Origin: Negaprion brevirostris
Lineage: Eukaryota
Direction: 5' to 3'
Assembly: GCA_030324005.1 (NCBI GenBank)
Contig: JARDVH010000160.1
Span: 16,407,204-16,471,203, forward strand
DNA length: 64,000 nt
Part shown: positions 455-54,960 of the stretch, one piece after another
Layout of the letters: every line of letters starts with the position of its first letter
Numbering within the stretch: the stretch's first letter is position 1
Translations under genes and position numbers: made by a program
Notes under the pieces: model-generated
What the model was told of the DNA's origin: nothing
What the model saw: the letters and a program-made list of their open reading frames with translations, nothing else
The model's database searches: none

Positions 455-1395
455 ATTAATATATATTAATGATCTAGATCTTGGTGTGCAGAGACAATTT
501 CAAAGTTTGCGAATGATACAGTACCTGGTCATGTCAAAAACTGTGAGAAGGACAATGTAAACCATTAAAAAGACATAGAGAGGTTGGTAGAGTGGGCAGA
601 GAGACGTCAAGCGAAGTTCAATGCAGCAAACTGAGATGATGCATTTTGGTAGGAGGAACATGCAGAGACAAAAGAATTTTACCCCTTATTTTCTAAAGGG
701 GGAGCAGAAACAGAGGGACCTGGGTGGAATGTGTAGATCATTGAAAGTGGAGAAAGCAGCTAATAAAGCATATAGTATCTGGGCTTTATTCATGAGGGCA
801 TAGAATACAAGAGCAAGGAACTTATGCTGAACTTCTACAAGACACAAGTTAGACCTCAGCTGGTGTACTGTGTACAGTTCTGGGTGCCACACTATAGGAT
901 GTGAATGCATTGGAGACAGTGCAGATAAGATTTACGAGAATAGTTTTGGGGTGATAATCTTCAGTTACAAGGATAGATTGAAGAGGTTGGGAGTGTTCTT
1001 TTTGGAGAGAAGACTAAGAGGAAATTTGATGGAGATATTCAAAATCATGAGGGGGCTGGACAGAGTAAATAGGGAGAAACTGTTCTCAGTGGGCCTGAGA
1101 ACGAGAGGGCACAGATTTAAAGTGATTTGCAAAAGAAGCAAGTGTGAAGCAAGAGAAGCTCTTTCACAGTGAATGCTTTGGGTCTGGAATGCACTGCCTG
1201 GGAGTATGGTGGAGGCAGATTCAATTGAGGCATTAAGGGGGCATTCGATGATTATTTGAATAAAAATAATACAGAGGAAGGCAGAAAAATTAAAAGTTAA
1301 ATTAATTTTAATTCTAAGTCACAAATGTTTATTTGGAGTGCCGATGCAGATACAATGGGTTGAATGGCCTCCAACTACGTCATAACAATTCAGTG
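455..1395 (+). mobile_element. CR1-type LINE 3' fragment (degenerate RT C-terminus)
   Basis: Remnants such as SYKDRLKRLGVFFLERRLRGNLMEIFKIMRGLDRVNREKLF...RTRGHRFKV, followed by a CR1 3' tail. Confidence 0.9.
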
Positions 1396-2750: not shown

Positions 2751-3709
2751 ATTGCTCTCAGTATTTGTTATTCTGGTAACAATAGGTAGATTTTTCCTTA
2801 AATATAGGAGAGCTTATCCAACATTTGGGATGGGTTTCAGAACTAATTACTAACAGGTGGTCCTGGGCTTATGACCTTTTAATTATGTTTTAACCAGTCT
2901 TGGAAACTTTTGTCTTTCCTGAGCAAATGATTTATTCTTTCCCTCTGCAGTCACGCTGTGATTTTGACAAATTAGTATATGGACAAATTGATACATCCCC
3001 TAGACTTCAAAAATACGTTGATTATCACAGTGTTAGAATAACGCCATTGGTAACATTAGGAGAAGCTAGTGAATCAAAGCTTTAATAGAAGAAACGAAAA
3101 AAATCACAAATATTTATTATTCAATTATTAAATAAATATTTAAACATATTTTTACTCTGGCTTTGCATTTTTTTATACTCTGATTCTGATCATCTTTTCC
3201 TGTTTTTATCCTTTTTTCTATTCAAGCTTTGATCCAATTTCTTCTTCTAATGTTACAAATGGCATTATTTATTCCTGATTTAGTTTACTTTACAATATTT
3301 ACTATCCACATCGCTTGCACTTTCACAGATCTGCACGTCTGAATGACACATCACAGGTAAAATGTTGTGTCTAATTAAATGAGAATGATAATTTTGTTAG
3401 CTCTGCGAGTGTAAAGACATTTGACTTATTTATATCATTGAATCAAACATGTCAAGCCTAGCATGGCTTTTGTTTAACAGAAATGCAGGGGTTTTTTTCC
3501 CCAGTTGACTTACCTTGGTGCCTATGAAAGCAAGCACTGCAAACCTAATTAACTTACCAATCCTTTCCATAATAATACTCTTCCCTGTAAAATTCTCTTT
3601 TACACGGGGCAGCACTGTAATACAGAGCACCAGACAATGAACCCATCTCATTGTTTCCCATTCAGTGATTTTCTGACCTTAGTCAATCCATCATAGTTTC
3701 ATGGATTAA

Positions 3710-4035
3710 TAGAATCATAGAATCCTACGGTGCAGAAGGAGGCCATTCGGCCTATTCAGTCTGCACCAATCACAATCCCACCCTGGCCCTATCCCCATAA
3801 CCCCACGCATTTACCCTAGCTAGACACCCTGATACCCAGGGGCAATTTAGCTTGGCCACTCCACCTAACCCACAAATCTTTGGAACTGTGGGAGGAAACC
3901 GGAGTACCTGGAGGAAATCCACGCACTTACGGGGAGAACGTGCAAACTTCACACAGACAGTACCCAAGCTGGGAATTGAACCTGAGTCTCTGGTGCTGTG
4001 AGGCAGCAGTGCTAACCACTGTGCCATCATGCCAT
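3710..4035 (-). mobile_element. HE1-like SINE, near full length
   Basis: tRNA head, V-domain (gtgggaggaaaccggag...tgcaaacttcacacagacag) and CR1-type tail (atagaatc)n. Confidence 0.88.
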
Positions 4036-7412: not shown

Positions 7413-10073
7413 CTGTAATCAAAATAAACAATGCAACATATCTTAATGAGACTATACCTGGGATATTCTATACAATCTGGACAATAGACTTTAGAGAAGG
7501 ATGATATGGCAAGCTTCCATTTATGAAAGATAACAGTCATGCAACAAACAAATCCATTTCATAAGGCATGTTTCCAATTGACACACCTTTGCTGATAAAG
7601 AGGCCAGGCCATAAGGGGCAGGTTCTTGATTTGATTTATTATTGTCATACATCTTAGTATACAGTGAAAATTATTTCTTGCACTCTATACAGACAAGGCA
7701 TACTGTTCATAGAGAAGGAAAGGAGACAGTGCAGAAAGTAATGTTGCAATCATAGCTACGGTATAGAGAAAGATCAACTTAGTGCATTGTTAGAAATTTT
7801 CAGAGTTACAATGAAGTTTTAGAAGCATAGAACAAGAGTAAAAAAAAGTAAAAGATAGAATTAGAAGGTATGCTGTGCACAACTTGCAAAAAGCCACCTC
7901 ACTCCAGGACCATCTTGAGAAAAAAAGGCGGTATGAGGCAGATTCTGCCATAAGTGCCACACATGAAGCTACTGTGTCATTATGGGCTGTTGTCGTTGGT
8001 GTCATCTGTTGCCAAGCCTTTTTCACCAATCGACTTTGTGATGGTCGATGTCAACCCATAGGAGGTGTAGCTATTTTCCTCTGTTGTCAGCTGGTTTCTC
8101 CCAGGTGCAATAAGCAATGTTCAAAGCCTTCATGCCAATTCTTGAAGTGGAGGAATAGAGACAACACTAAAGGATTCAGGAAAGAATGACATGAAAAACT
8201 GCAGGTTTTCGCTTCACCAGTTCTACAGAGACACTGAGGAAAATTAAGTGTATTCGGATTTAAAGAAAGGAAGATTAAGAGACTAAAGTAACGGATCAAG
8301 AAGTGGAAATAAGCCTTTGTGATCAGGATGAATCGAAGACCATCAATGTGTAGACTGCAGAGAAACAAGTGATGAACTTTTGGGACGAAACTTAGTGATG
8401 TTTTACTTCCCTTATGACTTTAACTCCAATGGTGTTCAATACCCTGAAAGCTCTGAAGATCTTTGATTTGTTATACCAAAGTTAAGGACAAATAAGACTA
8501 AAATTCTTTGCTACTTTCAAGCAAGCAATAGAGTTTTTTTTGTTGGCTTTTAATTTAATATATTTACCTTTAGCAATCTTTAAATAAAGTAAGACAATGG
8601 CACAAATTAGTGCATCTGTGTACTGGATGGTACAGATTTCTATCTGGAGTTATCCACACATGACCTTGATTAGACTGTCTGCAATAGAGACAGTTATTTT
8701 CCTATTGAGGAAGGAAAATAAGAGGGCAATTACCCTCAGGTCATTCACATGCTTTTTGTAACCTTGACTGAAAAGTGATGTTGGCAGAGGTCCAGGTCTA
8801 AGAGCTGGTCTGCCCTTAGGCCCAAAGAATAAGGTGTGGTGAGACACAAGATAACGTTTTTTAAAGAACAAAGAAAAACATGTTTAATAATGATTGGTTT
8901 AGTATATCTAGATATCTGTGAAAGGCAGTGGAGACAAACACTCGGGAATAATTCAACTTTGTAATTCCATGCTGGGAGAATTTAAGGTCTTTATTGGTCA
9001 AAATGAATCAATAGACATTCCTGATTGTTTATGCATGTCCACATGTCCTTAAAGATGTTTTTTAAAAAAATTATTGAAATTAATCATGCATAAATTTTCT
9101 TATGCTACTTTTTATTGAACTGAAGGTTAGATAAAAGCAATGCTGACCAAGATTTTGGAAAAAAAACTCAGAAAATGCTTCTGAAAAAATAAAGATGTTC
9201 GAAAAAAATAAAAATGCCCTAAGAAACACTGCAATGGAAACATTGATCAGTGTACAAATGCATTTCCCCAGCAGAAAAGGGATGACGAGAATCACGTACT
9301 GAAATCTCTCAGGATGAAAATTCCAATATATTTTTCATGACATCCTCTGCATAGTCAGAATGGTCAAAGAAGGTTTTTATTTAGACCCATAGTTCATCAG
9401 TCTATCATATGAATGGAAAATAAAGAAACGCATATTCTAAATAAAGATGTCTTTGACCCATATAACAAAGAATAATCTATTACATCTAAAGCTGGCTCTC
9501 TCCGAGGATCAGAGAATTAAAAGTACAAGGCATAGAGTCATACATCATGAAATGTGCATAGTTAGAATGGTTAATCGTTTAATTTCCAAGTACGGGATTG
9601 TACAATGATATTTGCTGTTCTGTCACACGCTAAATAACCAATTACAGTTTTGTCTCCCTGAGCTTATTATATTCCACTTTCTGCAGTACATACAAGGTAA
9701 ATTGTGAACTGACATTTTGGTTGCGATTAAGGCTAATCACGTCAGCTGCTCACCCTATTAAGTTAAAAGAGCCTTTGGATCAGAACTCAAAATAATTGGC
9801 TGTAATAATCGATGGATCCAGGGAATTGCTAGGTAAATGTGTGACATTGATTGTCCTATAAATGGAGACAGCAGGGAAACTTTGGGTAGAGGGCTTCTTA
9901 TAAGTTAGTAACACTGAGGAAGTGTTTCACAATAAACCACCTTGAACCTAAATGACCGAGTCTGGATTGATTTGTCCATGATGTGGAGATGCCAGAGTTG
10001 GACTGGGGTAAACACAGTAAGCAGTCTCACAACACCAGGTTAAAGTCCAACAGGTTATTTTTGGTAGTAAATG

Positions 10074-10110
10074 CCACTAGCTTTCAGAGTGCTGCTCCTT
10101 CATCAGGTGA
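10074..10110 (-). ncRNA. Minimal type I hammerhead ribozyme motif
   Basis: Minus strand TCAC CTGATGA AGGAGC AGC ACTCT GAAA GCT A GTGG: both core boxes, stem II, palindromic AGCT stem III and stem I CAC/GTG. Confidence 0.7.
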
Positions 10111-10136
10111 GCGAGAGTCAGGTGAGAACTCCCCAC

Positions 10137-10172
10137 TCACCTGATGAAGGAGCAGTGCTCCGAAAGCTATTG
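10137..10172 (+). ncRNA. Minimal type I hammerhead ribozyme motif (stem I weakened)
   Basis: TCAC CTGATGA A GGAGC AGT GCTCC GAAA GCT A TTG: perfect 5-bp stem II. Confidence 0.65.
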
Positions 10173-12366
10173 GTGTTTACGACCAAATAAACCTGTTGGA
10201 CTTTAATCTGGTGTTGTGAAACTTACTTGATTCATCCATTGCAGCCACTTGTTGGTAGTAACAATAGTAGCAGAAGATGAGCTTTAAGTTTGGTGATTGA
10301 CTGTGGAATATGAAGCCTTTTGTCTGTAACAATGGTCACAGAGGATGAGCTTTAAGCTTGGTGATTAACTGCAGAATATGTTTCAATCATCTGAGGGAAA
10401 ACAAGTGTATTGTTGCTGACAATTGAAATTATGGAATGGTGGAAGGTTGGTGGAAAATTTCAAGTTTTGACTGTCCACCATGTTTTTTTCTGACTCTGAA
10501 CCATATCAGCAATGGAAAGCTGAAGTTGAAATATGGACCTGGGTTATTTCCATATCGAAACTGAAGCAAAATACAGCATTAACATTATCGTTAGCATCCA
10601 AAATGATATTATGCAAGCAGAAAATCTTTAATTAAAGCTGAGGTTTCAAGGAGAATTCGACAAGCTCTACGGTATCTCATAAGGCATCAGGGATACAGTT
10701 TCAGCAAGGAGGTATGGTATATTATGAAAGAGAAGGCCAAAAAGAGTGGAAAGGCCTGGCAAGATAATAGAGAGTAAAAGGGAAATAGTAACTACACAAC
10801 ACAGTAATCAGATTGTTTGGGTCTATTCTTCATGGTTGATTGGTACAGACTATACATTCACAGGTTCTGAACAGCACATAGCAAGTGAGAAGACACTTCA
10901 CATACATGCATTGAGTCAATATAAGGAGCAGATGATGTTAGGCATAAGATTGACAGACTAAAAACAAGGTAATATTGAGGCATAGGATAATGTCATTTCT
11001 GCAAAAAGGGCAACTGCCTAAAACAGGCACAAAGGTAACATATATATCAGAAGGGGCCAGTGTGTGGAGGGATGTCACCACAATAGGGAGAGCTGGAAAA
11101 ACCTCTGGTAAATACCAAAAATTGGTTCACCCATGGAGTGTTCTTGTAACAATTGGTCTCTTTGGGACAATGTTCATTCAACAAAGAATGTAACTGAGGA
11201 AAGGCTGAATAGGTCAGGCCTGTATGAAAGAGAAGGGAAATCTCTGAAATACAATAGGTTGACAAATGTCAGACTGTTTCACAAGAAGAATTGTTTGCTC
11301 TACGAAATTACCAAACGTATCAAAAGAGGAGATGACTTATGTAATAATGAAATTAAAAACTAATTTCTGTTTTATAATGGCTTATGTACAGTTGGTAAAG
11401 GAATTATATATTTGGAAATGTGAGATAATTTATTTCTGTTTAGATTCAAAAGAATGTTCTTTTTTTCTTTCAAAACTTTAATTTAAAAACGAAGGGAATT
11501 TGTCAGTGTACTATTAATCACAGCGTATGGCAATTATCTTGTTAAGGGAATTGCTCGGTGAACATGTGACATTGATTGTCCTATAAATAGAGATTGGCTG
11601 GAACACTTTGGACGGAGAGCTTCTTGTAAGTTAGTAACACTGAGGAAGTATCTCACAATAAACTGGCTTGAACTGAAAAGACCAGTATGGATTGATTCTT
11701 CCATCGCAGCTACTTGTTGTGAGAAACAATTATAATGCCATGGCNNNNNNNNNNNNNNNNNNNNNNNNNNNNNNNNNAGAGCAGATAGCCTGTGGATTAA
11801 CATCTTATGTGAGTGTGGCACCATGAACATTTAAAGCCCACCCTCAATACTCCATTGGAGTGTCAGCCTAGATATTTGTGCTGACTCTCTGGAATGGGTG
11901 AGAGAGTTAGCAACTGAGTCACAGCTGATACTCAAAAAACATTTACAATGTTTCTACTACACCTAGTGACAAGAGCAAGTTTCTTAACCATTAGATTGAT
12001 TTTTTTTCCACAAAAATAGCATCCTTTTCTTTCTTGTACTAATCTAAAAATAATTTCAGTACTGTCTTAGAGTGCAACTTGCTTTCCAGCTGTAGCCATC
12101 TAAATATAGAACAAAACTGATCATAATTCCATCCAAATTAACCATTTTATAACAAAGACAGATTGATGGCATGGAAGATATGTCAGAATGCGGCAATGGG
12201 ATTACTCTATAGAGACTAATCTGAAGAACATTATTGCTGCAAAGTTTTAGACTGAGTTTCAAGGTGTATATAACCTATGCTATGCAATCAGGGTTGCTCT
12301 GCTACAACTTTTCTCAAAGTAATCTTGAGGTGAATTCAGACTGATTTGTGCCTTTGTCTCTTACAG

Positions 12367-12530
12367 TCCGCGGTTGTTGGCTAGTCTGTGTCGAGGTTCC
12401 ATCAGACACTGAAGCTCTGCATGGAACCAACATGAAACTCACCTGCATTTCCTGTATGAAGAGAGAAGAAGTGAATACAGACACCATGGTCGAATGGACT
12501 TACGTCAGTAATGATGGGAAGGAAATATCT
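12367..12530 (+). CDS. SCN3B: Sodium channel beta-3 subunit, coding exon (end of signal peptide, N-terminal half of Ig V domain)
   Basis: Bounded by tctcttacag| and |gtatgt; 164 bp. Translates (V)RGCWLVCVEVPSDTEALHGTNMKLTCISCMKREEVNTDTMVEWTYVSNDGKEIS, matching recalled human beta-3 VCVEVPSETEAVQGNPMKLRCISCMKREEV. Confidence 0.97.
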
Positions 12531-13604: not shown

Positions 13605-13900
13605 GACATGGTGGCACAGTGATTAGCACTGCTGTCTCACAGTGCCAGCAATCTGAGTTCGATTCCCATCTTGGGTCACTGTCTGTGCGGAGTCTGCACG
13701 TTCTCCCCATGTCTGCATGGGTTTCTCCGGGTGCTCCGGTTTCCTCCCACAGTCCAAAAAACGTGCTGGTTAGGCGTGTTGGCTATGTTGAATTCTCCCT
13801 CCGTGTACCCAAACAGGCGCAGGAGTGTGGCGACTAGGGGAATTTCACTGCAGTGAAACTTCATTGCAGTGTTAATATTTTTGACACTAATAAATAAAAT
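13605..13900 (+). mobile_element. HE1-related SINE with alternative 3' tail
   Basis: Head ggcacagtgattagcactgctg; tail gtgtggcgactagggg...ttcattgcagtgttaat...aataaataa. The same tail occurs at 21580-21860(-), 23935-23990(-) and 31040-31315(+). Confidence 0.85.
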
Positions 13901-16749
13901 TCAAAAAACTTTAGATAGCTCATTGCCAAGACGGAGAGAATGATGGCTGCATTACAGCGCAGCTGGATTGGCATTCTGCAACATGTGATCTCGGAACCAA
14001 GTCAAAAGGCCATTTTATTTGATGAACAATGCACTGTTTAACCAGAGCTGAGGACTGACGACACTAACAGGACAGCAGGCAAAACACCTGACCCATAATT
14101 TCATTTCCAAATCTCTGCTAGGAAAAAGCTGTTTGAGGCCTTTGCCACCGACTGCATCATCTGTTTTGTCCTCAGTATATTGAGGAAATTCATATTTTGG
14201 AAGATGAAGTTACATACTATTGACATAGAAAATACACATCAACTGTAGGTCTCTTAGAGATGTACTGTTTTGGACACCAAAAAATAACCAAGATATTAAT
14301 TATGCTCAGAGTTAATTAATTACATCCTTAATAAGACTTTCTTTTAATTCAAAGAAACTGATTGGATGGAAGTTTTATAATCATTTGTAAAAATCCCCAC
14401 ATTAAACAATTTTAATGCTGTCATTTCAAAAGCTATCCATGGTTGGCACAAGTTATCATTAAATTGGCAATCACATTCTATTTCAGGGTGGGCTATTCTT
14501 CTGTCAATGGGTAAGTTGAATGAGGAGGATTACTCTGTACCTGCGTCTGATGTTTTGGATCTGACAGACCTCAATACTAAAAATAGAAAAACATTCTATC
14601 TTCCAGCACTGAGGTCTTTCACCTGCTTAAGCAATGAAGGACAATGTCGTAAACACAATTTTAAAAAACACATCCTTTTAAAACATCATAGCCTTGAAAT
14701 TCATCAGCTCCCATTTTGAGGCACCTCAGACAGTAACAGCTGACAAGTGGGCAGCTCGGGAAGGATGGGTTTACCATTGCGATCGGGTTGGAGTTAGATC
14801 ACAAAAGAATATCGCAGGTATCTGCAGTATTGTTGTTGGGCAGGGCCTCAGATCTCATTCAGTGTGTGCAGGAGATGAAGAGGCAGGGGCCACAAGGTCA
14901 GTGTCAGGTGTGAGGCCCAAGATTTTAGGATTGACAAGCAGTGATGTTTATGGTAAGTACTTACCTTTAGGTCACAATTGTGGATCAAAGTTGAAAGGGA
15001 GCAGAAGCAGCCAAGACCCCTATTTATATATGTTAATTGCTTAACACCTTCTGATATGGGCAAAGGACATAGTGTTTTGATTGATCTTTACCAAAATGGC
15101 AGCCAGGATGGCCTGCAACGTAATGCTGGAAACAGAACAGCATCTGTGGCACTGAAAACCAGGGTATTATGGAACCAAGTCTCTTGCCCCATGGGGGACA
15201 GACTCTTCTGGTGAGTGAGTAAATGAGAATTATGATGGCTCTGAACTTTACAAATAGAGCAGATCCCAGGCTAAAATCACAGGTCCAAGCAGAATTATCT
15301 GGTATCAGCGAAGTGGTGATATAATTGTCTTTAATAAGTATCCAGTATTTCCTGATAGGAAAAGTAGATGCAGCTATCAGAGAAAGAATAAGATGAAGAG
15401 TAAGTTAAACCTTGACGTCCCTTTTTCAAATAGCTCACTGAAAATCAAAACCGAATTTAAAAATGTTTGCCTATCGAATGGGAATAGAGCCTACAAAACA
15501 GATTATCCTTATAATTATTAACAATTAGAAACATCAATTAAATATTGAAGGAAATATATTAAATTCTTCTCTTGTGGCCTTCAAATTATGTAGGTCATAA
15601 TTTGGTACACTAAAATTTGTGAATTGATTGTAATGTAAGATTATTAAGGCTTTTAGAATGAGGCAGAATTCACTGAACATATCATTTACTCAAACAAAAT
15701 CTTTTAAAATATCTAAGTCAATGCAGTGGCCATTCTGATTAGTCAGTATATATTTTTACTCTATTGTGTAGGTTATTTAATGAATATCTACAGCATAACT
15801 TAAACATTTCATTGCATGTAAATGTATAGATTAATGGGGATGTTGGGTTAGTGCTCATCACAGAGGAATACATACTGCTGACAATATACCACTAGTCTCG
15901 GCATGGATTACTCCCCAGCCAGTTGTGACACAGATTACATTTTTAATCTTCATGTCTGATGTATCAACTTAGAGTCAATTGATGCAGCGATAGAGAGAAA
16001 ATTTGCTTCAGACAGTAAACTTGATATGCAATCAGGTCACAGATGAAATTACAATCTTCTAACTGATTGCAATATCCAGTGTCCCATGAATATATTCTGT
16101 TACATTACTAAAGATGTCTATTAAATTACTGTAGGTATCATTTGTAAATATATTACTGCTTTAGCTTATAGTGGTGCTTCAAATGGCCTGTATTTTAATT
16201 TCTGTCCATCTTTCAACGTGGGTTTTGGTGGTCTGTATTCTTCAGTTTTGACCTTCAGGAATATTTAAGGGGATAGCTCCATTGGTTTATCAATGTCTTA
16301 TTAAGCAAGTCCGTACTTATATCATTGTATGAGCTTTTACTCACCTTGCCAGCCCTTTGTTAAAAGTCTCCAGAGCTTCCCAGTGGCTCAGCTACTTGGT
16401 TGTGGAATTGAGACTGATGGCAGGTTTATGCTTGGTTACATAATTTCATTGTGGTGATAGTTGAGGTGCTGGAATCAACTTTAAGGGCCCCAGGCTAGGG
16501 AATAATATGGTCGATTTCCCTGGTCCTCATCACCAAACTTAGTCCTGGGTGGAAGGAGTGTTATATCTATGTGCGAACATTAGGTGGAAATGGGATCTGG
16601 CTCAACTGTAACTTTACTCCATGGTCAGTCTCTCTATATTCACCATCTTGGTTTATTTGTGGTTGAGACAACTGCATCTCAGCAAGAATTGGCACCTTTA
16701 GAGTAAGGAGTGGTAATACTGAGAGGAAGAAAATTCTTATGTATAATCA

Positions 16750-16890: not shown

Positions 16891-16974
16891 TCTTTCGGTT
16901 TTTATTTAATTCTAAAGTATAACTTTGGCATTTTAGTAGTTCATCACCTGATGAAATCTGTGTCTTTGTGACAG

Positions 16975-17200
16975 ATTTATGAGTACAACGGAGAGCCACG
17001 AGAGGTAAAAGGACCTTATCAGGGCAGACTTCTGTGGAATGGAAGTAAAGATCTGCAAGATGTATCCATAACCATAGTGAATGTTACACTTAACGACAGT
17101 GGTCTGTATCGGTGCACGATCAAACGGTATTTTAATTATGAGATGCACAGACCTTCTGTAACAGACGTGAAAGAGGTGCAACTAACAGTGCATGAAGATG
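16975..17200 (+). CDS. SCN3B: Sodium channel beta-3 subunit, coding exon (C-terminal half of Ig domain)
   Basis: tttgtgacag| ... |gtgagg; 226 bp, in phase with the previous exon. IYEYNGEPREVKGPYQGRLLWNGSKDLQDVSITIVNVTLNDSGLYRCTIKRYFNYEMHRPSVTDVKEVQLTVHED; WNGSKDLQDVSI and NVTLNDSGLY are beta-3 signatures. Not in the ORF track because there is no start codon. Confidence 0.97.
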
Positions 17201-17544: not shown

Positions 17545-17830
17545 CCTTGACCTTCGGTGACTGTCAGTGTGGAGTTTTCAACTTCTCCCCATGTCTGCAT
17601 GGGTTTCCTCCCACAGTTCAAAGATTTGCAGGTTGGGTGGATTGGCCACACTAAATTGCCCCTTAGTGTCCCAAGGTGTGTAGGTTAGGTGGACTAGCCA
17701 TAGTAAAACGTATCCAGGGTACGGGGAAAAAGTGGGGGATGGGGAGGGACTTAAATAATATACTTTTTCAAAGAAGTGGTGCAGTCTTGATGGGCCAAAT
17801 GAATTCCTTCTGCACAGTAGCGGTTCTATA
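17545..17830 (+). mobile_element. HE1-like SINE, 5'-truncated
   Basis: gtgactgtcagtgtggagttt...aaattgccccttagtgtcc...atgggccaaatg. Confidence 0.8.
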
Positions 17831-20619: not shown

Positions 20620-21515
20620 TCAGGCCTATCCATCTTCAGCTACTTCAACAATGACCTTCCATCATAAGGTCAGAAGTGAGGATGTTCGCTGATGATATAT
20701 TCAGCACTAATCATGGCTTCTCAAATCCTGAAGCAATCCATGTCAAAATGCAAGAAGGCCTGGACAATACACAGCTTCGGGCTGGCAAGAGGCAAGTAAC
20801 ATTTGTGCCTCATCAGTGCCATCTCCAACAAGAGAGAATCTAACCATCACCCTTGGCATTCAATGGTATTACCATCCCTGAAGCCTCCACAGTCTATGCC
20901 CTGGTAATTATTGTCCAAAAATTGAACTGAATGAGCCACAGAAACACAGTGTCTATAAGAGCAGCTCAGGGGCAAGGAATACTGTGGCAAGTAACTCACC
21001 TCCTGACTCCCCAGAGCCTGTCCAGCAACTACATGGTATAAGTCAGGAGTGTGATGGAATATTCCCCATATGCCTGGCTGAGTGCAGCTCCACCAACACT
21101 CAAGACACCCAATACCATCCAGGACAAAGCAGCCCTCTTGATTAGCATCTCTTCCGCAAACATTCAGTCCTTCCACCACTGATGCATAGTAGCAGTAGTG
21201 AGTACAATCTACAAGATCATGGCAGCAACTCAGAGACCTTAAACAGCCCCTTCCAAACCCATGACCTCTACCACCTGGAAGTTCCCCTCCAAGCAACTGA
21301 AGGTCCTGACTTGGAAATATATTGCTGTTCCTTCACTGTCGCTGGGTCAGGATCAGGGAACTCACTCCTTAACCATGCCGTGGATGTCCCCACACCACAC
21401 GAATTGTAGTGGTTTAAGAAGGCAGCTCACCTCTACATTCTCAAGGACAATTAGTGATGGGAAATGAGGTGGCCTAGCCAGCGACGTCTACATCCCATGA
21501 ATTAATCAAAAAAAA
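20620..21515 (+). mobile_element. LINE (CR1/L2 group) RT C-terminal and 3' end fragment
   Basis: aatgaccttcc...gatgttcgctgatgat (NDLP...MFADD) motif; ends in catcccatgaattaatcaaaaaa. A related piece lies at 31855-31935. Confidence 0.8.
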
Positions 21516-21579
21516 AACTACTGCAGCAGCCCTGGTGCCCAAGAGGAGAAAAGGGAAAACAGTGAAAGGCTTTTTTTTA

Positions 21580-21860
21580 AGTTTATTTATTTATTAGTCA
21601 TAAGTAAGGCTTCCATTAACACTGCAATGAAGTTACTGTGAAATTCCCTTAGTCGCCACATTCCAGCACCTGTTCAGGTCAATGCACCTAACCAGCATGT
21701 CTTTCAGATTGTGGGAGGAAACCAGAGCACCTGGAGGAAATCCATGCAGGCACGGGGAGAACGTGCAAACTCCACACACACACAGTGACCCAAGCCGGGA
21801 ATCGAACCTGGGTCCCTGGCTCTACGAGGCAGCGGTGCTAATCACTGCCTCCATACCACC
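21580..21860 (-). mobile_element. HE1-related SINE (alternative tail)
   Basis: Reverse-orientation copy of the 13605-13900 family. Confidence 0.85.
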
Positions 21861-22589: not shown

Positions 22590-22772
<183 letters not shown>

Positions 22773-24039
22773 TAAGTTACCTTAGGACACTGTACATATG
22801 TTATTTGTGCACATATTTTGAGTATGAGTTTTTTAAGATACAGCTAAGAAAATGTAATTTTTTAATGTCACTTCTGATATTCAATAGATTCAGATGGGAT
22901 GGGAGGTTTAGGGAGGATTTGAGGAAAAATTTTTTTACTCAGAGGGTGGTGACAGTCTGGAATGTACTGCCTGGAAGAGTGGTAGAGGCGGGATATCTCA
23001 TCCTTCAAAAAGTACCTGGATGAGTAGTTGGCACATTCAGGGTTATGGGGCAAGTACTGAGAAGAATAGAATTAGTCCATATTTGTTCATTGTTATTCAC
23101 TGGCTGCAGAACACAGGCACAATGAGTGTAATTTATATTCAGATGGTTCAGAACCAACCATATCTCCAGCTAAATCAAGCCTCTCTATTGTCTTTTCCAA
23201 ACTTGTAGTTTCACAATCTCATTTGAAAGGAAGTGAATAGTTACAGTTTTCTTTTTCAATATGTTAATCAGAGGTTACATTACTCTTGGGACCCCAGTGG
23301 TGTGCATGAATTTAATAATCGTGGCAAAACATCATTTAATGCCATTTTAAAAAGTCATGTTTTTCATAGCCAATGTTTTAATTGTGCTGGGGGCCGATGA
23401 GGAGCTCAGTAGGGAAGAAGAATGAGAATTGACATTTGGTCGACTCCTATTGAATCTGTTAAGGGGTTGGCAGCAGCCTGGGTCTCACAATCAATTGNNN
23501 NNNNNNNNNNNNNNNNNNNNNNNNNNNNNNNNNNNNNNNNNNNNNNNNNNNNNNNNNNNNNNNNNNNNNNNNNNNNNNNNNNNNNNNNNNNNNNNNNNNN
23601 NNNNNNNNNNNNNNNNNNNNNNNNNNNNNNNNNNNNNNNNNNNNNNNNNNNNNNNNNNNNNNNNNNNNNNNNNNNNNNNNNNNNNNNNAGTTACAGATAG
23701 TTCTCTGGCTTGGTAGGCATAGATGTGATCGGCGCAACTTGTGGGCCAAAGGGCCTGTTTGTGCGGTAGTGTTCTATGTTCTATCACATGCATCTCAGGT
23801 ATGCTTTAATTTCTAGGCCAGAGGATCTAGTCTGCTCACTAGACTTAGAGTCAGGCACTTAAAGTTATTCTCTTAAATTATTTTACTTCCCTCTGCTGTA
23901 GTTTGTTCAATAACATAAATGTTTTTTTCTGGTATCACAAGTAGGCTTACATTAACACTGCAGTGAAGTTATTGTGAAAATCCCCTAAGTTATTCTCCTT
24001 GTTATTGCTCAGTTTCAATATTCCTGGTTCCTTTCAGGT

Positions 24040-24357
24040 GACATGGTGGCACTGTGGTTCGCACTGCTGCCTTAGAGCGCCAGGGACCCGGGTTCGATTC
24101 CGGCCTCGGGTGACTGTGTGTCTGGGTCTGTGTCCCTGAGTCTGCGTGGGTTTCCTCTGGGTGCTCAGGTATCCTCCCACAGTCCAAAGATGCGCATGTT
24201 CGGTTGATTGGCCATGTTAAATTGCCCCTTAGTGTCAGTGTAAATTAATAGGGTAAATGCATGGGGTTACGAGGATAGGGTCTGGGTGGGATTGTCGTTG
24301 GTGCTGGTTCAATCAGTCAAATGTCCTCTTCCTGCACTGTAAGAATTCTCTGATTCT
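24040..24357 (+). mobile_element. HE1-like SINE in SCN3B intron
   Basis: ggcactgtggttcgcactgctgcc...gggttcgattcc...ctgcactgtaagaattct. Confidence 0.88.
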
Positions 24358-27645: not shown

Positions 27646-29169
27646 TACCTAGTGGGCTCTTTCCATAGAATTATGAAATGCTTCTGGTAGTTTCCTTGCT
27701 GTGAAATATGAGTGGAATGTAGATTTGGTACCTTGTCCAATTTCCCTCTCTTCTCAAAGTCAATGACTGACTTTTATTTGTTTAGGTTCTGCAACCCCCA
27801 GGAAGATCAGCCACTAGCATTACTATCAACTGAAATGTTGTGAAGCAGAGAAAAACATGTTTATAGAATTCTTTGGTTTGGATTTCATGCAGCCTTTTCT
27901 AATGTCCTCACAATTTATAAACCATAGGCAAGTTATCACCTAAAATCTGAGGTATCTTTTACAAAAAGGTCTTTGTGCATCATTTGAACTTTTTAATTTC
28001 TAATTTTTTTGGATTAACCAACTTCCAAATTTAATGGCCAAATGGTTTTGCCAAATGAGGATTTGGATAGATTTAATTCCCAGTTGATAGCCTAGATATG
28101 AGTATATTTGCAAATGGTGTGTAGGCTCACCCAAAGTCCATTGGCTTGTTTTGAGTTTTATTAGAATTTTCAGTTCACATCATTGACAAATAATTTTATT
28201 TTTTCCACGAAAGAATCGGACACGAGTTCTTTACGTCATTTCCTGCTCTAAATCGCATGCATTTGGCCACAATTTAACGACGGGAAGTCTGCTGAAATCG
28301 CTGGAATATTTCAATTATCAATCTAGTGGTGAAAGAGCGGGGTGGGTGCGGGGGTGGTGTGGGGGTTGTATTGTATTGTGATGTGATGAATAATTTAAAG
28401 TCAGTTTCAATTTTTTTGATTGTCTGTGTAATTTTGAGGCCTATTAATGACCATCATCTTTTAGCCATCAACACTTCTTTTGCAGAAAAGTGTTAAAAGA
28501 GCTAATTGCTGAAAATTTTTATAAGAAGCAGTTACTCTCAGTAGTTCTTTTATGGTACTTGGACACACTGCTAATCAAGTGTTATTTGTGAGTATGATGT
28601 TTCACATTGCAAATGTGGAGATCACACATTGGTTCTATTCTATGGGCTGGTACATCAAATTGCTGCACTTCCTAAAATATGACATTTGTTAGTGTTATCA
28701 TTTACATATGTCTAATTAAATAGCTAGGAGAGAGAATTGAAACCTACTTACACAGCAACACTGCAGTAAGCAACAGTGAAGTAAATAAGAGGCAAAGGAG
28801 TGCGATTTAATCCAATTTGTTCCGTATTAAATCGCTTTTCCACGCCAGTTTAGTAGACTGCAATTCCTTCATAATGTTTTCAGTTATAAAACTAGCTCAT
28901 GTTGAAACAATTCATATTTTTCTAATGTCTTAAAATTGTACTCACACATATTAGTCCTTTGTCTTTGAATTCAATATAAAGAGCCTCCAACTTATTAATT
29001 ACTTTGATTACCTTAACCACTCAAGTTTCCCATTTATGCACTTTTTCAAATATTGTTAGTAATCTAAACATTGTGAGGCTAATCTTGTAAAGTGACAAGT
29101 AACATCTAAAACAAACATCTTTCTTTATACCATCTCAATGCGACAGCAAGCATTTGGAGTTGTAGTTTC

Positions 29170-29497
29170 ATAGAAGATTTCGTAGAATCGCTAAGTACAG
29201 CACGAGGCCATTTGACCCATTGAGTCTGTACCGACCACAATCCTACCCAGGCCCTATTCCCGAACCCCACACATTTAGCCCGCTAATCCCCCTGACACTA
29301 AGGGGCAATTCAGCTTGGCAATCAACCTAACCCGCACATCTTTGGACTGTGGGAGGAAACCTGAGCACCCGAAGGAAACACATACAGACACGGGGAGACT
29401 GTGCAAACTCCACACAGTCAGTGACCCAAGACCGGAATTGAACCCGAGTCCCTGGCGCTGTCAGGCAGCAGTGCTAACCGTCATGCCACCATGCCAT
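29170..29497 (-). mobile_element. HE1-like SINE
   Basis: Same structure as 3710-4035. Confidence 0.88.
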
Positions 29498-31039
29498 CCA
29501 TGGTGTAGTTACCGAAGGTGGGTGTAGCATACAAAGTATAATCCAACTTTCAAAGATTTGTATAGCTATAGAAATAAAATTTAACAAATTGTATAGAACA
29601 CAATGGGCATGATCTTACCTGCCGTTCATGACACACTCCCACTGCAATGAGGTCAGAGAATTTGGTGGCCAGCCAAACCTCTGTTTAGTGCAGCGGGATG
29701 GGAAAATCTCACTGACCAACATAACATTCGGGCCTTAGAGTGAAGGAGATCTTCATCTGGAAATAATTAAAGATATTGTGGAAAAGCACACATTTTCATA
29801 GCCTAAAATAATTTCAGAGACAGTACAAAGTCTGATTTTTGATAACAACAGTTATATATCAATTCCACATAGATGGCAGGTTATGCTTAAATCTAATAGA
29901 ATTTTTAAATAATTCCTTGATCATTAAAAACTAGCTATTAAACAAGGTAACTGACACAGATTGCTGAGGGTTGTGGACGAATGTTGTAGCAGCAGTTTTC
30001 AAGAAATCAGTGTCAGACTTCTGGTTTTGTGAACCCTGGCTAAAGATCCTCATCATTATTGACATGCCCCCTTGTGTAGAACCATCACAGTGAAAAGTAT
30101 TCTCAAGAGTCAAGAGTCTCAAATGTCAACAAAGAATGACAAAGAAGTTGATAAAGAAGGGTAGGATAAACTATGAAGCTGGGCTAGCGCTTAATATNNN
30201 NNNNNNNNNNNNNNNNNNNNNNNNNNNNNNNNNNNNNNNNNNNNNNNNNNNNNNNNNNNNNNNNNNNNNNNNNNNNNNNNNNNNNNNNNNNNNNNNNGAT
30301 CAGCCATGATCTTATTGAATGGCGGGGCAGGCTCGAGGGGCTAGATGGCCTACTCCTGCTCCTATTTCTTATTTCTTTCTTATGTTCTTATGAGTGTTGA
30401 CCAGAAAATGCTTATAAATCTCAGTAAAATACTATCATGATTTGGAAAATCACAACAAATGATATTTAGGATTTGAGAGTCAATTATTGAACTTCTAGGC
30501 TAAACTTACTCAAAGTAATACTGTTAAAGATGGTAAAGAAAGACCATGCATTTTTACAGCACCTTCCACATTGTCAAGGTAACCGAAAGCACTCCACAAA
30601 CAATGACTGATAGGTAAATGATGAACGATGCCCAAAATTGCTTATTTTGATCAAACCAAATACCTTCACCCAAAGTTAAAGACGGTCAGCAATTAGTGCC
30701 AGTTATTGCAATTCAGGGGCATTGATTAAATTCTGCCATGCATTAACAAGGATGGTAGAATTTTTTCCCCCAAATCGAGATAAGCAGACTGACATAAAAA
30801 TATTATTCTGAAATTAACTCACTTCAAAATAGTAATGAAATAAAAATATTTAGTAATTAAATGTGTAAATTGTACATTTAATATTAACAATACAGCTTCA
30901 GATAAAAATGAAGTTAATTGTTCTTGACTTGAAAATTCTATGGTCAATTTATTCAACTGTAAATTGATATAATTTTACTGCATCAAGATTGGTGTGATCA
31001 GGTCATTTTTGCATGGCATGCCATTCTGAGTATGATAGG

Positions 31040-31315
31040 GGTGGCATAGTAGTTAGCACTGCTGCCTTAACGCCAGAGACCTGGGTTCGATTCCTGGCTT
31101 GGATCACTGTCTGTGCAGAGTCTGCATGTTCTCCCAGTATTTCCTCTAGGTGCTCTGGTTTCCTCCCACAGTCTGAAAGACGTGCTGATTAGGTACACTG
31201 GTCATACTAAATTCTCCCTCGGTGTACCCAAACAAGCGCCAGACTGTAGCGACTAGGAGATTTTTCACTAATTTCATTGCAGTGTTAATGTAAGTCTACT
31301 TGTGATACTAAATAA
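31040..31315 (+). mobile_element. HE1-related SINE (alternative tail)
   Basis: Same family as 13605-13900. Confidence 0.85.
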
Positions 31316-31935
31316 ACCTAAATTTAACATTTTGGGTTCAGTTTTGCCTTGCTGGGTTTATTGGCTATTTGAAATGTAATGTTTGAGAGGTGACAAAGGG
31401 ATATGAAAACCATTGTCTCGTCATAAAAAGATGTGTACCTTTTCACTTTCTCTCTTCTCCTCAGTGATGCTTTTTTTTGTTCTCCTCTAATCAGTTGCAC
31501 TGTTTTATTGTTTGTTTTTAAGGTCAAGCTTATCCACAATTTGAAAATTTGTTAGATGAGCTCACAGAGTTAGATGCACAGAGCTTACAAGTTATTTTAC
31601 TGAAGCTCAAGGCTTGGTGAATTTAAACTGGAAAAGGAACATGCAATTAAAAACAAACACAAAGAGGTGCCAATTTAACATTGGGAATTTTGTCTTCATT
31701 AAGAAAAGGTATGTCAGTGCCAAGCAAGGGAGCTTTGAGCATCAAATATTAGCATCAAGCAGATTGAGTTCCCAGAACCCGTAACCCCCCCCACCACCTA
31801 AAAAGACAAAGGTGGAAGGTGTATAGGAAGATCCAAGTTTCCAATCAGGACATACCATCCTGACTTGGACATTTATTGCTGTTCCTTCATTGCCGCTGGG
31901 TCAAAATCTTGGAACTCCCTACCTAACAGCACTGT

Positions 31936-32144
31936 AAGAAGTCTCACAACACCAGGTTAAAGTTCAACAGGTTTTATTTGACATTACAAGCTTTCAGAGT
32001 GCTGCTCCTTCATCAGGTGAATGGAGGTGAAGGAGCAGTGCTCTGAAAGCTCGTGATTTCTAACAAACCTGTTGGACTTTAACCTGATGTTGCGAGACTT
32101 CTAACTGTGCCCACCCCAGTCCAATGCTGGCAACTCCACATCAC
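31936..32144 (-). mobile_element. Palindromic Penelope-derived element (family A) with hammerhead motif, inserted in a LINE fragment
   Basis: Exact 11-bp TSD aacagcactgt at 31925-31935 and 32145-32155. Minus-strand motif TCAC CTGATGA AGGAGC AGC ACTCT GAAA GCT T GT at ~31984-32020; the plus-strand copy lacks CTGA. Confidence 0.8.
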
Positions 32145-32259
32145 AACAGCACTGTGGTAGTACTTCACGTCGTTTGTGTATGCTTTAAACTGGACCAGCA
32201 GATGGGGACCACAACAGCTCAGTGACTATCACTGTTAGCTGTGCAGATACATGGATTTG

Positions 32260-32530
32260 GGCCAGTGTCTGTGGGAGTTTGTGCATTCTCCCTGTGGTTG
32301 CATGGGTTTCCTCCGGGTTCTCCGGTTTCCTCCCACACTCCAAAGATGTGCTCTTAGGCTGATTGGTGTAACAAATTGACCCGACGCTATTCTCCCCTGA
32401 ATCTGGCTACAATAGGGGTACCATTCGCATACACACAGGGCAAGATAGTTGGAGGAAAATGCTTTGTTAAAATGGCGGTGCAGGCTCGTTGGGCAGAACG
32501 ACCTGTTTCCCGTGCCGGGTTGTTCTTTGT
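32260..32530 (+). mobile_element. Diverged V-SINE copy
   Basis: gtctgtgggagtttg...gggtttcctccgggttctccggtttcctcccac. Confidence 0.7.
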
Positions 32531-34159
32531 TCCTTGAAATTTTCAAGGCTGAGAACGATGGTTTTTAACCAAGAAGTTAACCAAGAAGGGATACGGTGAG
32601 ATGTCAGGAAGTGTTCTTTTTTCCCTTTCACAAATAATGTTAGTAAATGGCAGAGCAGTTTCGAAGGGCTGAATGAAAGAATCCTATTCTGATTGTCTGT
32701 GGATTAGTAAGTCCTCAGGCTTTGGAACTCTCTTCCTGAAAGGGAATATTAGCAATGTTTTTGAATATTTTTGAAGAAGACGATGATACTTTCTTGGGAA
32801 GCAAGAGGTGTTTGGCTTTCATGTGTGGGTGGAATGCAGATTTGATATTCGCATCAAGTTAGCACGAACAGATGAAATTGAGGAGTAGGATCCAGGAGCT
32901 GAACGGTAGACAGATGTTCCTCATTCGCTTGCTCACACAATAGTCAGAGAGATAAAACTTTCCTTTTCATTGGCTTCAATGAGAGACCTCTTATTTTAAA
33001 AGTTGCCATCTGCTTTTTGATTCTAACTGCAATGGAAGCATATTGTGCCCATGCACAATGTCAAAACCCCACAATATCTTCAACTTTCCTATCAGATCGC
33101 CTCTTACTATTCTAATTTCTAGTCTGTATATGCCTAACCTATCCAACTATATCCATTCGACTGTCCACACACATGAGTATGCACAACATTTCTCAGATGG
33201 CCACACCAGTTAAAGTGCTGCAACTTGCAAGGCCTTGACCATGGGTTGGAGTGTGACATTAAAAGGAGTGACTAATTCCATTTTACTCTGTTGTGGTCCA
33301 GCTCAGAGTCAATGTGTGAGACGTCCCTTTCTGATCTATCACTTTTGAATTGTTACAGGTTTTATGAGGGTTCTGTCAACTGAAAGGGTGTGCATAAATT
33401 GTGTTGGAGATAATTCTGGTTAAATAATGTTTCTCTTTTCGCCAGCATCATAAACATGCTGGACAGATTTCTTTTCAGACACATTAAAATAAGAAGATAT
33501 TAAATATTACGAGGTTGAGCGGATTAATAATTCAACTATTTTGAAGGAAATAATCCTCGAGATTGAAGAAATTTCGACCACACAGAGGGTTGAAATAAAA
33601 CATGAAGAAAGGGACATGAGGTTGAGTGAAGGATACAGGCCATAAAGTCACTTATGACTGCTAATATGGGAAATTTTACATGTGTTTCTGAACGCAATTT
33701 TCTCACGTCACTTCGCTCTCTCTCGTATTAATCTCCCGGAAATAATATCTCTGAACAATGTGAGGGTAAATCCTTTCTTAGCAGGTTTGGACATGCTTGT
33801 TGCTGAATAACAGCAGTGTAATATTTCCATTCGTCCTGCTTCTGGCACCTCTCTTGTATCAAGACAAGGATCATTATTACTCCCGGAACATCCATAAAGT
33901 CACCCGTACAAAAGGTTTGAAAGACTGACATTACAGTCTGACAACGTGTGACAGCAATATCCATAACTGTTTCAATTCTCTTCAGTCCAATTGTACACTG
34001 TCAATCAATATTCATACGTTTTAGCAAAATGCATGGACCANNNNNNNNNNNNNNNNNNNNNNNNNNNNNNNNNNNNNNNNNNNNNNNNNNNNNNNNNNNN
34101 NNNNNNNNNNNNNNNNNNNNNNNNNNNNNNNNNNNNNNNNCCTTGATCCGAACTCAGAA

Positions 34160-34373
34160 AAAAGCTAAATGTTGTAGATGCTGGAATTTAAAACAGAAAT
34201 ACAAAATACTGGAAAATCTCAGCCGGTCTGACAGCATCTGTGGAGAGAGAATGGAGCCAACATTTCGAATCTGGTCATCTGGATGACTGTGGTCGTTGAA
34301 ATGTTGGCTCTATTCTCTCTCCAAAGATGCCGTCAGACCTTGCTGAGATTTTCCAGCATTTTGTGTTTTTGTT
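34160..34373. mobile_element. Palindromic Penelope-derived element (family B)
   Basis: Inverted arms (ctggaaaatctcagc..tctgacagcatctgtggagagagaa / ttctctctccaaagatgccgtcagacc..gctgagattttccag). Exact 13-bp TSD tccgaactcagaa at 34147-34159 and 34374-34386. Confidence 0.75.
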
Positions 34374-40540: not shown

Positions 40541-41452
40541 ACCATGATTGTGTTCCACGAATGTCCCATTAAGGAGGGTTTTAGTTAAAACAAGCTTTAT
40601 TGGGAAATCATTTGAAAATCAAATTGAATATAAAGCAGAAATCCACATGTGGCAGGCTCATGAACCCTCTGTAAAATTAGTTGAGAAGGAGCAAGTTCTG
40701 GATCTGCTCAATTCTTCTGTGGCCCCAAATAACAAGTACATTCTTGAAATATCCAAATAGTTTAAAAAGAAACACCTACCTCTGGAGGCACAAAAAGCAT
40801 GAGTGTTTCTTAACTTCACAATTGCTGAGATTATCCACTCCCGTTCCAACTCTAATCCCACCTTTGACCCGATTTGTCTGTCAATGGAGGCCACAAGATT
40901 GAACTTCAGGTGACCCCAGACCTCTAGTGGACTAAATGTCTGCAGTGTCACGTTTGGGTCCAAAATCAATCCGGACAACTATCAGGTCCATAATTTATTT
41001 AAAATGTTTCTAACATTCTACGGTATGTCTCCAAAAAGCTTAGGTGTTGGGATCCTCAGCTTCCTGAAGGTTCCAGAAGATATACAGCACAGGAACGGGC
41101 CATTCAGCCCGACCAGTCTACACTGGTGATTATGCTCAAGCTGAGCCTCCTCCCACCTTTTCTCATCTAAAATCTACCATCATAACCATTTCCCTTTCAT
41201 TACTTCTTGTGAGTTAGCGAGATGAAGAGATTCGATCTGCTTGCAGTCTGTAGCTCACAGCATCAATCTGAACCTACAACTCTCAGAATTTGAATTTATT
41301 TTGACAGCAATCAGGTCATCTCCAGAACATGCTGAAACTTGTCATTTTTAAGCCTTATATTTCCTTCCTTTTTGGCTAACCATAGCAAATTGTGGATTGA
41401 GAAGAACAAACGCCAGGAAAATAATTAGAAGCGAAGAACAAATTTAAGTACA

Positions 41453-41770
41453 TCATAGAATCCCTACAATGCAGGAGGTGGCCATTCGACCCATCGAGTC
41501 TGCACCAACCACAATTCCATCCAGGACTTTTCTCCATTACCCTACTTACTTACCCCTCCCTGACACTAAGAGGCAACTTAGCATGACCAATCAATCTAAC
41601 CTGCACATCTTTGAAATGTGGGAGGAAACCAGAGTAGCCGGAGGAAATCCACGCAGATACAAGGAGAATGGGCAAACTTCACACAGCCAGTCACTCAAGG
41701 TTGGAACAGACCCCAGGTTCCTGGCACTGTGAGGCAGCAGTGCTAACCACTGCCCCACCATGCTGTCCAG
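41453..41770 (-). mobile_element. HE1-like SINE
   Basis: catagaatccctacaatgcaggagg...gaggcagcagtgctaaccact. Confidence 0.88.
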
Positions 41771-46755: not shown

Positions 46756-46909
46756 GATGAAGAGATGCCAGCGTTGGACTGGGGTAAACACAGTAAGAAG
46801 TGTGTGCCTTTATATGCTCTGTTTGTGATCAGAACTCTCCACTCACTTGACGAAGGAACAGCGTTCCGAAATCTAGTGGCGTTTACTACCAAATAAACCT
46901 GTCGGACAG
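46756..46909 (+). mobile_element. Family A Penelope-derived element (non-palindromic form) nested in the Gypsy RT
   Basis: Exact 11-bp TSD taacaattctt at 46745-46755 and 46910-46920. Removing it restores the RT segment LLRIVIHKGLF. Carries CAC tTGACGA A GGAAC AGC GTTCC GAAA TCT A GTG. Confidence 0.8.
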
Positions 46910-54751: not shown

Positions 54752-54960
54752 CGTAGATGCTGGAAATAGGAAATAAAAACAGGAAATGCTGGAAATACTC
54801 AGCAGGCCAGGTAGCATTTGTGGAGAGAAAAAAGAGTGTTAACATTTCAGGTCAATGATGTTTCATCAGATGAAAGACCTCCAAGCTGAAATGTTAAGTT
54901 TCTCCCCACCACAACTGCAAACTGGCTTGCTGATGTTTCCAGCATTTTCCATTTTTACTT
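54752..54960. mobile_element. Palindromic family B element within the probable GRAMD1B 3'UTR
   Basis: Inverted arms aaatgctggaaatactcagcaggcc...ggagagaaa / tttctcccc...ggcttgctgatgtttccagcatttt, with a central tttcatcagatgaaa. Confidence 0.7.

Follow-up and report, generated by a model that had tools for sequence, protein, structure and literature searches.

The window analysed here is a 64,000-nucleotide stretch of the Negaprion brevirostris assembly GCA_030324005.1 (contig JARDVH010000160.1, positions 16,407,204 to 16,471,203 of the forward strand). It carries an SCN3B exon and, upstream of it, a 248-bp insert at 9980-10227. A preliminary description had placed this insert in an intron-like region upstream of the first detected SCN3B exon. 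Although the SCN3B identity of that exon is upheld (E 1.1e-26), no convincing candidate for the SCN3B signal-peptide exon was found, and because that exon is not placed, the intronic location is unproven. The features discussed below, in window coordinates, are as follows.

9968-9979, no strand: left TSD copy, TGATTTGTCCAT
9980-10015, minus strand: 36-nt extension at one end only, assigned as the "tail" of a Penelope-like element (PLE); the same one-ended extension occurs in copies B and C
10016-10118, minus strand: left arm, assigned as a 5'-truncated pLTR copy, sense on the minus strand
10071-10110, minus strand: hammerhead motif (minimal type I) in the left arm, with an intact core and a helix I of 3 bp plus G.U
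10119-10124, no strand: junction filler; with its neighbours (10118-10126) it repeats a 9-mer of 10103-10111
10125-10227, plus strand: right arm, assigned as a tailless 5'-truncated pLTR copy whose sense strand is plus
10137-10173, plus strand: hammerhead motif (minimal type I) in the right arm, with both its core and its 5-bp stem II intact
10228-10239, no strand: right TSD copy, TGATTCATCCAT
11545-11730, plus strand: paralog of the flank, 82.6% over 161 nt, representing the empty site; it has the target motif once and lacks the insert
31925-32155, minus strand: copy B, a tailed fold-back with a TSD of 11/11, one of whose arms breaks off within the hammerhead core
46745-46920, plus strand: copy C, a tail end of 46 nt in inverted orientation, fused to a longer sense piece that does not overlap it; TSD 11/11, one diverged core

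A fold-back insertion with a one-sided tail

The insertion and its TSD of about 12 bp, as first described, are real. Folding of both strands identifies the insert as a fold-back (z about -17.7), with MFE values of -151.4 and -147.2 kcal/mol (z -17.7 and -17.4) on the two strands, a stability that no shuffle reached on either strand (0/200 each). Complementarity is 90% between 10023-10061 and 10185-10223 and 87% between 10060-10111 and 10136-10187, and the arms differ in 15 of 96 columns, nine of these differences being transitions, several at CpG. The element, first called "palindromic", is as a whole asymmetric: the 36 nt at 9980-10015 have no partner arm. The two TSD copies are identical at 10/12 positions, or at 11/13 with one extra T counted, and a comparable match arose by chance at 5 of 60,427 positions. 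Because the nearby flank paralog represents an empty site with a single copy of the motif, a TSD of 12-13 bp is confirmed. This paralog sits 1.6 kb from the insertion. The final three nucleotides of the left TSD (9977-9979) also match the family end, which suggests microhomology, and the filler is likely a templated, microhomology-joined junction.

Hammerhead motifs and their predicted folding

CTGATGA...GAAA cores lie at 10141-10165 (plus) and 10106-10082 (minus), and both arms hold the CUGANGA(H) and GAAA core elements together with a palindromic helix III stub (GC/UA) and an NUH site, whose H is A, C or U across the copies seen and never G. The preliminary description had read each arm as CTGATGA-[GGAGC-loop-GCTCC]-GAAA-GCT-H-GTG; the cores stand, but neither arm has that exact motif. 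The plus arm has all 5/5 stem II pairs, including G10.1-C11.1, yet reads GCTA^TTG as the result of a private G>T at 10170, which turns the closing pair of helix I into C-U. The family base at this position is G (98,346 of a depth of 106,283 in run X1), and this majority restores C-G. In the minus arm, by contrast, the closure of helix I beside the cleavage site is paired and stem II is weakened (GGAGC/ACTCT), with a G.U at 10.1-11.1 and a C-A mismatch. Each motif is thus damaged. The back-to-back arrangement in which either strand carries a core holds as one hammerhead per strand, not two.

The bare core pattern is not rare (6 in the window versus 2.3 expected). The relaxed form of a structure-aware descriptor gave three window matches, all of this family, against three across 200 shuffles together; the strict form gave one match against one in 200 shuffles. 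An Rfam search of 9000-11200 returned no hammerhead family among 18 matches up to E 10. Stem covariation (a two-sided change in 1 of 9 pairs, equalled by 129/500 shuffles) is uninformative with only four window arms. With its descriptor fit well above chance, the motif agrees with the published minimal consensus, and its assignment to the type I hammerheads of Penelope pLTRs was borne out. As in the minimal hammerheads of metazoan PLEs (PMC4209133), it combines CUGANGA plus one extra base, GAAA and a G-started stem II with a palindromic 2-nt helix III, an NUH site and a helix I of 3-4 bp; among the rows of Fig. S3 compared there, that of the painted turtle is by eye most alike, and cartilaginous fish are absent from Table S1 and the Fig. 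S3 rows compared. Unlike those hammerheads, both motifs of the present copy are damaged. Opposite-strand hammerhead pairs are themselves already published: dual minimal hammerheads on opposite strands, 100-700 bp apart and tied to truncated PLEs, were reported in 2014 (Cervera and de la Pena, PMC4209133).

The element, first called "retrozyme-like", is not a retrozyme. Animal non-LTR retrozymes (PMC7229834; Li et al., bioRxiv 10.64898/2026.07.22.740005) are likewise short and non-coding, with type I hammerheads and kinship to PLE pLTRs, but they are built of direct tandem repeats, with circular RNA released between two ribozymes on the same strand, whereas in the present element the pair is inverted and each strand has a single core. 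The direct tandem units that a retrozyme requires are not present at the locus, and the motif is the minimal form, with a helix I of 3-4 bp, not a canonical hammerhead.

The folding results are equilibrium predictions, which a protein could override by remodelling the RNA; the ribozyme of PAc (Poseidon of Anolis carolinensis), for one, is protein-assisted (PMC11167929). Within these terms, the arm-arm duplex is predicted at -80.6 kcal/mol, whereas the local folds come to -11.5 and -6.3. Stem II has a predicted probability of 0.0 for either strand, whether the full element or a transcript still being extended is folded; for the left arm the value is about 0.26 alone and 0.0 within the element. 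Whichever strand is read, the antisense arm is transcribed first, and on both strands the predicted pairing of the core exceeds 99% by 8 nt after its first base appears, before stem II exists. Both ribozymes would therefore be locked in the hairpin, with neither able to cut. Cofolding the two isolated arms as a trans-dimer gave MFE structures other than a dimeric hammerhead, a weak result with unmodelled cores. If transcribed, the element would likely yield a long ADAR/Dicer-type hairpin rather than cleaved RNA.

The preliminary description had also raised a switch between hairpin and ribozyme, which these predictions do not support. A functional dual-polarity switch of this kind, possibly acting on SCN3B RNA, could draw on the intactness of both catalytic cores, on the position of the element 2.1 kb upstream of an SCN3B exon and on its presence in at least one other organism, where record 20 of run X3 bridges the right junction (in run X7 one contig enters the element by just 26 letters, the rule for presence being 31, and run X14 has no such contig, neither run counting for or against presence). 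It is nevertheless extremely improbable: on either strand the antisense arm is made first and stem II is predicted to be absent, both arms are damaged, the minimal hammerheads of PLEs are poor cleavers even in dimeric form, and a single core per strand means that no dimer can form in cis.

Copies, family ends and variable junctions

All three window copies have a one-ended tail and each has a different junction; two cores are kept in only one of the three. The fold-back-plus-tail layout recurs in copies D (TSD 13/13) and E (TSD not clear), both of a second, unrelated-looking repeat family. Four runs yielded 56,478, 60,447, 93,641 and 32,820 contigs, and depth, which here is contig depth and not copy number, rises from about 7-10 on the unique flank to 2.6e5-5.7e6 on the element. 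The outer ends of the family are sharp, at 9977-9979, where its loose ends peak, and just after 10224, and the flanks beyond them are mixed (agreement 0.33-0.35 and 0.45).

The interior behaves differently. The centre is strongly depleted, with a depth in the hundreds to low thousands versus 1e5-1e6 at the outer arms, and the internal joints number 778, of which 15 are listed. Among the 14 arm-skipping joints in that list, none keeps both cores, three keep only the left, four only the right and seven neither. The listing is biased, in that several joints cluster at 10056 and 10182-10185, where alignments are interrupted by differences private to this copy, and joints preserving both cores skip only a few bases and may have been tabulated separately. 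In many copies just one core survives, or neither, and the fold-back point varies from copy to copy. The idea of a non-autonomous family with a dual-polarity design is accordingly not sustained.

A related possibility is that the fold-back unit is itself a non-autonomous palindromic retroelement, transcribed as such and returned to the genome by PLE proteins. The family is vast, with short visible copies, the pLTR alone suffices for mobilisation in trans (PMC3846280), and depth at 10119-10122 is 347-640 in run X1 against about 7, so that, at some 50-fold over the single-copy level, some other copies must resemble this centre. A re-mobilised unit would be expected to show one shared centre, however, and the family has hundreds of joints, a centre depth 3-4 orders below that of the outer ends and three different junctions among three window copies, which makes self-propagation unlikely. 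More doubtful still is a narrower version in which a subset of the stubs propagates in this way, with a Penelope protein unwinding the hairpin and the hammerhead of the transcribed strand cleaving in trans-dimers; if true, this would be a two-way ribozyme element, distinct from tandem retrozymes.

The long inverted arms and the TSD would also suit a MITE-type DNA transposon or a microRNA precursor with an incidental hammerhead motif, and weak Rfam microRNA matches were obtained (best E 9.2e-5). These matches reflect the hairpin only, and all 18/18 Rfam matches fall far below gathering scores. A DNA transposon calls for terminal inverted repeats at both ends and a fixed interior; here the inverted repeat stops 36 nt short of the left end, the centres vary and copy C has no matched arms. 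Together with the above-chance fit to the minimal hammerhead descriptor, this leaves the MITE or microRNA reading very improbable.

Probable Penelope-like identity and proposed origin

With a probability of roughly 0.87, the insert consists of the head-to-head, 5'-truncated, hammerhead-bearing ends of a very abundant repeat, likely a dead-on-arrival PLE insertion; its mirror half probably arose as it integrated, and its ribozymes are predicted to be hairpin-locked. Published EN+ PLE units comprise an inverted pLTR with an optional tail and an 8-10-bp TSD (Arkhipova et al. 2013, PMC3846280), or an inverted 5'-truncated copy with a tail of 30-40 bp on one side only (Craig et al. 2021, PMC8557442). 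The elements here share the head-to-head truncated copies, the one-ended tail, the short TSD and the hammerhead. A type I hammerhead lies in the terminal repeat (pLTR); the adjacent inverted 5'-truncated copy is found in copies A (the 248-bp insert) and B, and copy C is an inverted, non-overlapping variant; the tail measures 36 nt, with two outer ends family-wide; and the TSDs match at 10/12, 11/11 and 11/11 positions. They differ in that the arms are only about 100 bp, the ORF is lost, and the TSDs span 11-13 bp versus 8-10 bp in the rotifer examples of PMC3846280. Mobilisation by Penelope machinery, as first suggested, is likely.

Because no ORF with RT and GIY-YIG domains could be tied to the pLTR, PLE identity rests on the layout and the hammerhead type. 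Pfam searches of 20 of the 317 ORFs of at least 55 aa, those at exons and beside copies, gave no RT or GIY-YIG, only Ig/V-set matches and one sub-threshold Plk4 match. Exact-pattern scans for longer ORF-bearing copies had no match in metagenome or viral contigs, and neither did an exact scan with the tail pattern in genome contigs; an 18-base pattern matched bacterial sequence 47 times, never over more than 30 aligned bases, and these matches were attributed to chance. No description of this repeat family was found in the open literature, but Repbase/Dfam or the supplement of Li et al., which covers one chondrichthyan genome, may name it. The insert is likely an ordinary stub of a kind of element already known.

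In the study of Frangieh et al. 2024 (PMC11167929), both strands are cleaved and extended by a PLE protein that starts at two sites on either side of the tail. These two RT starts of PAc match the two outer ends seen here, and targets are AT-rich in both systems. The PAc ORF starts inside stem II, whereas the corresponding ATG frame of the plus arm is closed by a stop after 8 codons, so the ORF start would have to lie elsewhere. We suggest that a PLE protein makes a staggered cut of 11-13 nt and that each of the two nicked target ends primes reverse transcription of pLTR RNA, one from the distal end of the tail and the other from a point about 36 nt inward, aided by target/RNA microhomology of a few bases. 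The two cDNAs would terminate early and be fused head-to-head through microhomology, with a short templated filler between them; filling of the gaps would create the TSD, and two cores would result only if both arms chanced to run past the core. The arms have since decayed independently.

Two-ended priming is less certain than the family assignment, because Arkhipova et al. (PMC3846280) prefer self-priming on an antisense template for such inversions and Frangieh et al. (PMC11167929) saw PAc initiate without target homology, unlike the copies here, which have 1-7-nt matches at their ends. Copy C and these short target/template matches nevertheless point to two-ended priming, in three copies only. 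For deciding whether PLE inverted ends arise by self-priming or by priming from both cut strands, so abundant a family, in which TSDs are clean and the junctions vary between two fixed outer ends, offers a large natural record against which models can be counted.

The single copy near SCN3B is a decayed insertion and matters little. Palindromic repeats in frog are heavy ADAR targets and a lizard Penelope is heavily edited (PMC5625713), and self-complementary stubs in very large numbers could supply much of the double-stranded RNA that these genomes produce.

The fold-back insert and its setting

The 248-bp insert at 9980-10227 (copy A) is a real fold-back insertion. Its left, minus-sense arm (10023-10111) and right, plus-sense arm (10136-10223) are 87-90% complementary, and both strands fold far more stably than 200 shuffles (z of -17.7 and -17.4). 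The insert is asymmetric, as 9980-10015 has no partner arm. The target-site duplication (TSD) pair, TGATTTGTCCAT and TGATTCATCCAT, is identical at 10 of 12 positions, against a chance rate of 5/60,427. The flank is a low-copy repeat whose paralog at 11545-11730 lacks the insert and carries the target motif once, directly confirming the boundaries. On these grounds the insertion with TSD reported in the preliminary description was upheld. The target repeat (9820-9979 plus 10228-10290) had a contig depth of 120-850 versus about 8, and the empty paralog lies 1.6 kb away. Immediately right of the insert, 10258-10380 contains a pair of direct 55-nt copies that are 85% alike and lie 68 bp apart. Other features of the window are listed below.

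Genes and other repeats in the window
about 12367-12530, +, SCN3B exon
16972-17200, +, SCN3B exon, confirmed by a separate search
about 22630-22770, +, SCN3B exon
1-112, 3694-4035, 13605-13908, 17552-17683, 21572-21860, 23924-24357, 29163-29500, 31040-31327, 32257-32367, 41452-41769, copies of a ~300-bp interspersed repeat

The first of these exons opens at a splice acceptor and lacks a start codon, which means that another exon precedes it; that exon was sought in the window and not placed. The frame at 60889-61203 (-) is a candidate for the C-terminal coiled-coil exon of GRAMD1B, a neighbor of SCN3B in other vertebrates; a Pfam search of this frame gave no match. The ~300-bp repeat is SINE-like in size, with about ten window copies that are 70-85% alike. 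Short frames at 831-1172 (+) and 20655-20840 (+), which look like decayed CR1-type LINE ends, likewise had no Pfam match.

A Penelope-like insertion layout

Two further members of the insert's family (copies B and C) and three of a second, different family (copies D, E and F) lie in the window.

Fold-back copies in the window
31925-32155, copy B, fold-back with tail, 11/11 TSD; one arm ends inside the hammerhead core
46745-46920, copy C, inverted 46-nt tail end plus a longer, non-overlapping sense piece, 11/11 TSD
34147-34386, copy D, fold-back with one-ended tail and degenerate hammerhead-like center, 13/13 TSD
54752-54962, copy E, same layout, CTGATGA...GAAA on the minus strand, short junction palindrome, no clear TSD
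50626-50767, copy F, same layout and degenerate hammerhead-like center, shorter

Only one of copies A, B and C has two hammerhead cores. Copy C lies in or beside a decayed frame at 46605-47231 (-) with weak Ty3 reverse transcriptase likeness (E 0.16) and no Pfam match. Because the second family shares the fold-back-plus-tail layout, the design is generic.

The published insertion unit of Penelope-like elements (PLEs), as described in PMC3846280 and PMC8557442, comprises the terminal repeat (pLTR), an adjoining inverted 5'-truncated copy, a 30-40-bp one-ended tail and a short TSD. The insert shares an inverted truncated copy, a one-ended tail, a short TSD and a hammerhead-bearing repeat, and by these four structural features it is likely a truncated fold-back PLE insertion, in agreement with the Penelope link proposed earlier. 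Opposite-strand minimal hammerhead pairs, 100-700 bp apart, were linked to truncated PLEs already in 2014 (PMC4209133). The insert is a known kind of feature. A search confined to the open literature found no description of its repeat family. Pattern scans of three public collections and Pfam on 20 window ORFs yielded no RT/GIY-YIG ORF linked to the repeat. Retrozyme membership, also suggested earlier, was rejected, as the defining direct tandem repeats are absent at the locus.

Contigs of four public runs gave 32,820-93,641 records per run on 9500-10700, with a depth of about 7-10 on unique flank versus 2.6e5-5.7e6 on the element, values that do not represent copy number. A contig from another organism (organism B) spans the right junction, indicating that the insertion is older than the split from that organism. 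In two further runs, X7 had a contig extending just 26 letters into the element, short of the 31-letter minimum, and X14 had no such contig.

Origin of the fold-back

Sharp outer ends of the family occur at 9977-9979 and just past 10224, offset by 36 nt and followed by mixed AT-rich flanks; a variable junction and a TSD are also seen. The long end coincides with a minus-strand ATG at 9977-9979, a position that would be compatible with an ORF starting where the tail ends. There are 778 internal joints; among the 15 listed, 0 of 14 arm-to-arm joints keep both cores, in a listing shaped in part by alignment breaks at 10056 and 10182-10185. Depth at the insert center (10119-10122) was 347-640 in X1, one of the public runs. 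Copies A, B and C have three different junctions, and the 9-mer at that of the insert (10118-10126) repeats 10103-10111.

In Anolis, the PLE protein cleaves the two strands and extends each of them, with reverse transcription starting at two sites bracketing the tail (PMC11167929). For the insert, each end of a staggered cut would have primed cDNA synthesis, from the end of the tail in one case and from an inner site in the other, and both cDNAs would have ended early before being joined through microhomology. Both-ends priming fits the short target/template matches in a sample of three copies: CAT at the long end of A, 6/7 bases at the short end of B and TAAC at the short end of C. For this step, the inverted half might alternatively derive from self-priming on an antisense template (PMC3846280).

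Hammerhead motifs and predicted folding

Each insert strand has one motif fitting the minimal type I hammerhead consensus (Fig. S3 of PMC4209133): CUGAUGA, one extra A, a 5-bp stem II, GAAA, palindromic GC, UH and a short helix I. With a structure-aware descriptor, three relaxed matches were found in the window, all in the insert's family, versus three in 200 shuffles combined; an Rfam search at the insert found no hammerhead match. Neither motif is as clean as the preliminary description has it. In the plus arm, position 10170 carries T instead of the family's G (98,346 of 106,283 in depth, run X1), and this breaks the helix I closing pair beside the cut site. Stem II of the minus arm contains a G.U at 10.1-11.1 plus a C-A, and its predicted probability is about 0.26 when the arm is folded alone. 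The arms differ in 15 of 96 columns, including nine transitions, several at CpG sites, a pattern that looks like independent neutral decay. Two-sided change affects one of nine stem pairs in an alignment of only four rows, a value reached by 129 of 500 shuffles. In copy C, stem II carries a two-sided G-C to A-U change (46851-46863) alongside altered core bases, which may represent a subfamily variant or decay.

The proposed switch between a hairpin and a cleaving fold is not borne out by folding predictions. With the arms head-to-head, transcription of either strand yields the antisense arm first; at the center the arms are about 24 nt apart. Predictions for growing transcripts have the CUGAUGA core >99% paired 8 nt after it first emerges, before stem II is made, and give stem II a probability of 0.0 from then on. 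Over the motif, pairing between the arms is predicted at -80.6 kcal/mol, compared with local folds of -11.5 and -6.3. A cis dimer is excluded by the single core per strand, and even dimers of minimal PLE-type hammerheads show weak cleavage. The insert RNA might be refolded by a protein, by analogy with the protein-assisted ribozyme of PMC11167929, but nothing in this analysis favors the switch. Both motifs of the insert are worn and likely inactive. The cleavage-site base among family copies is A, C or U, as would be required of an active hammerhead in the source elements.
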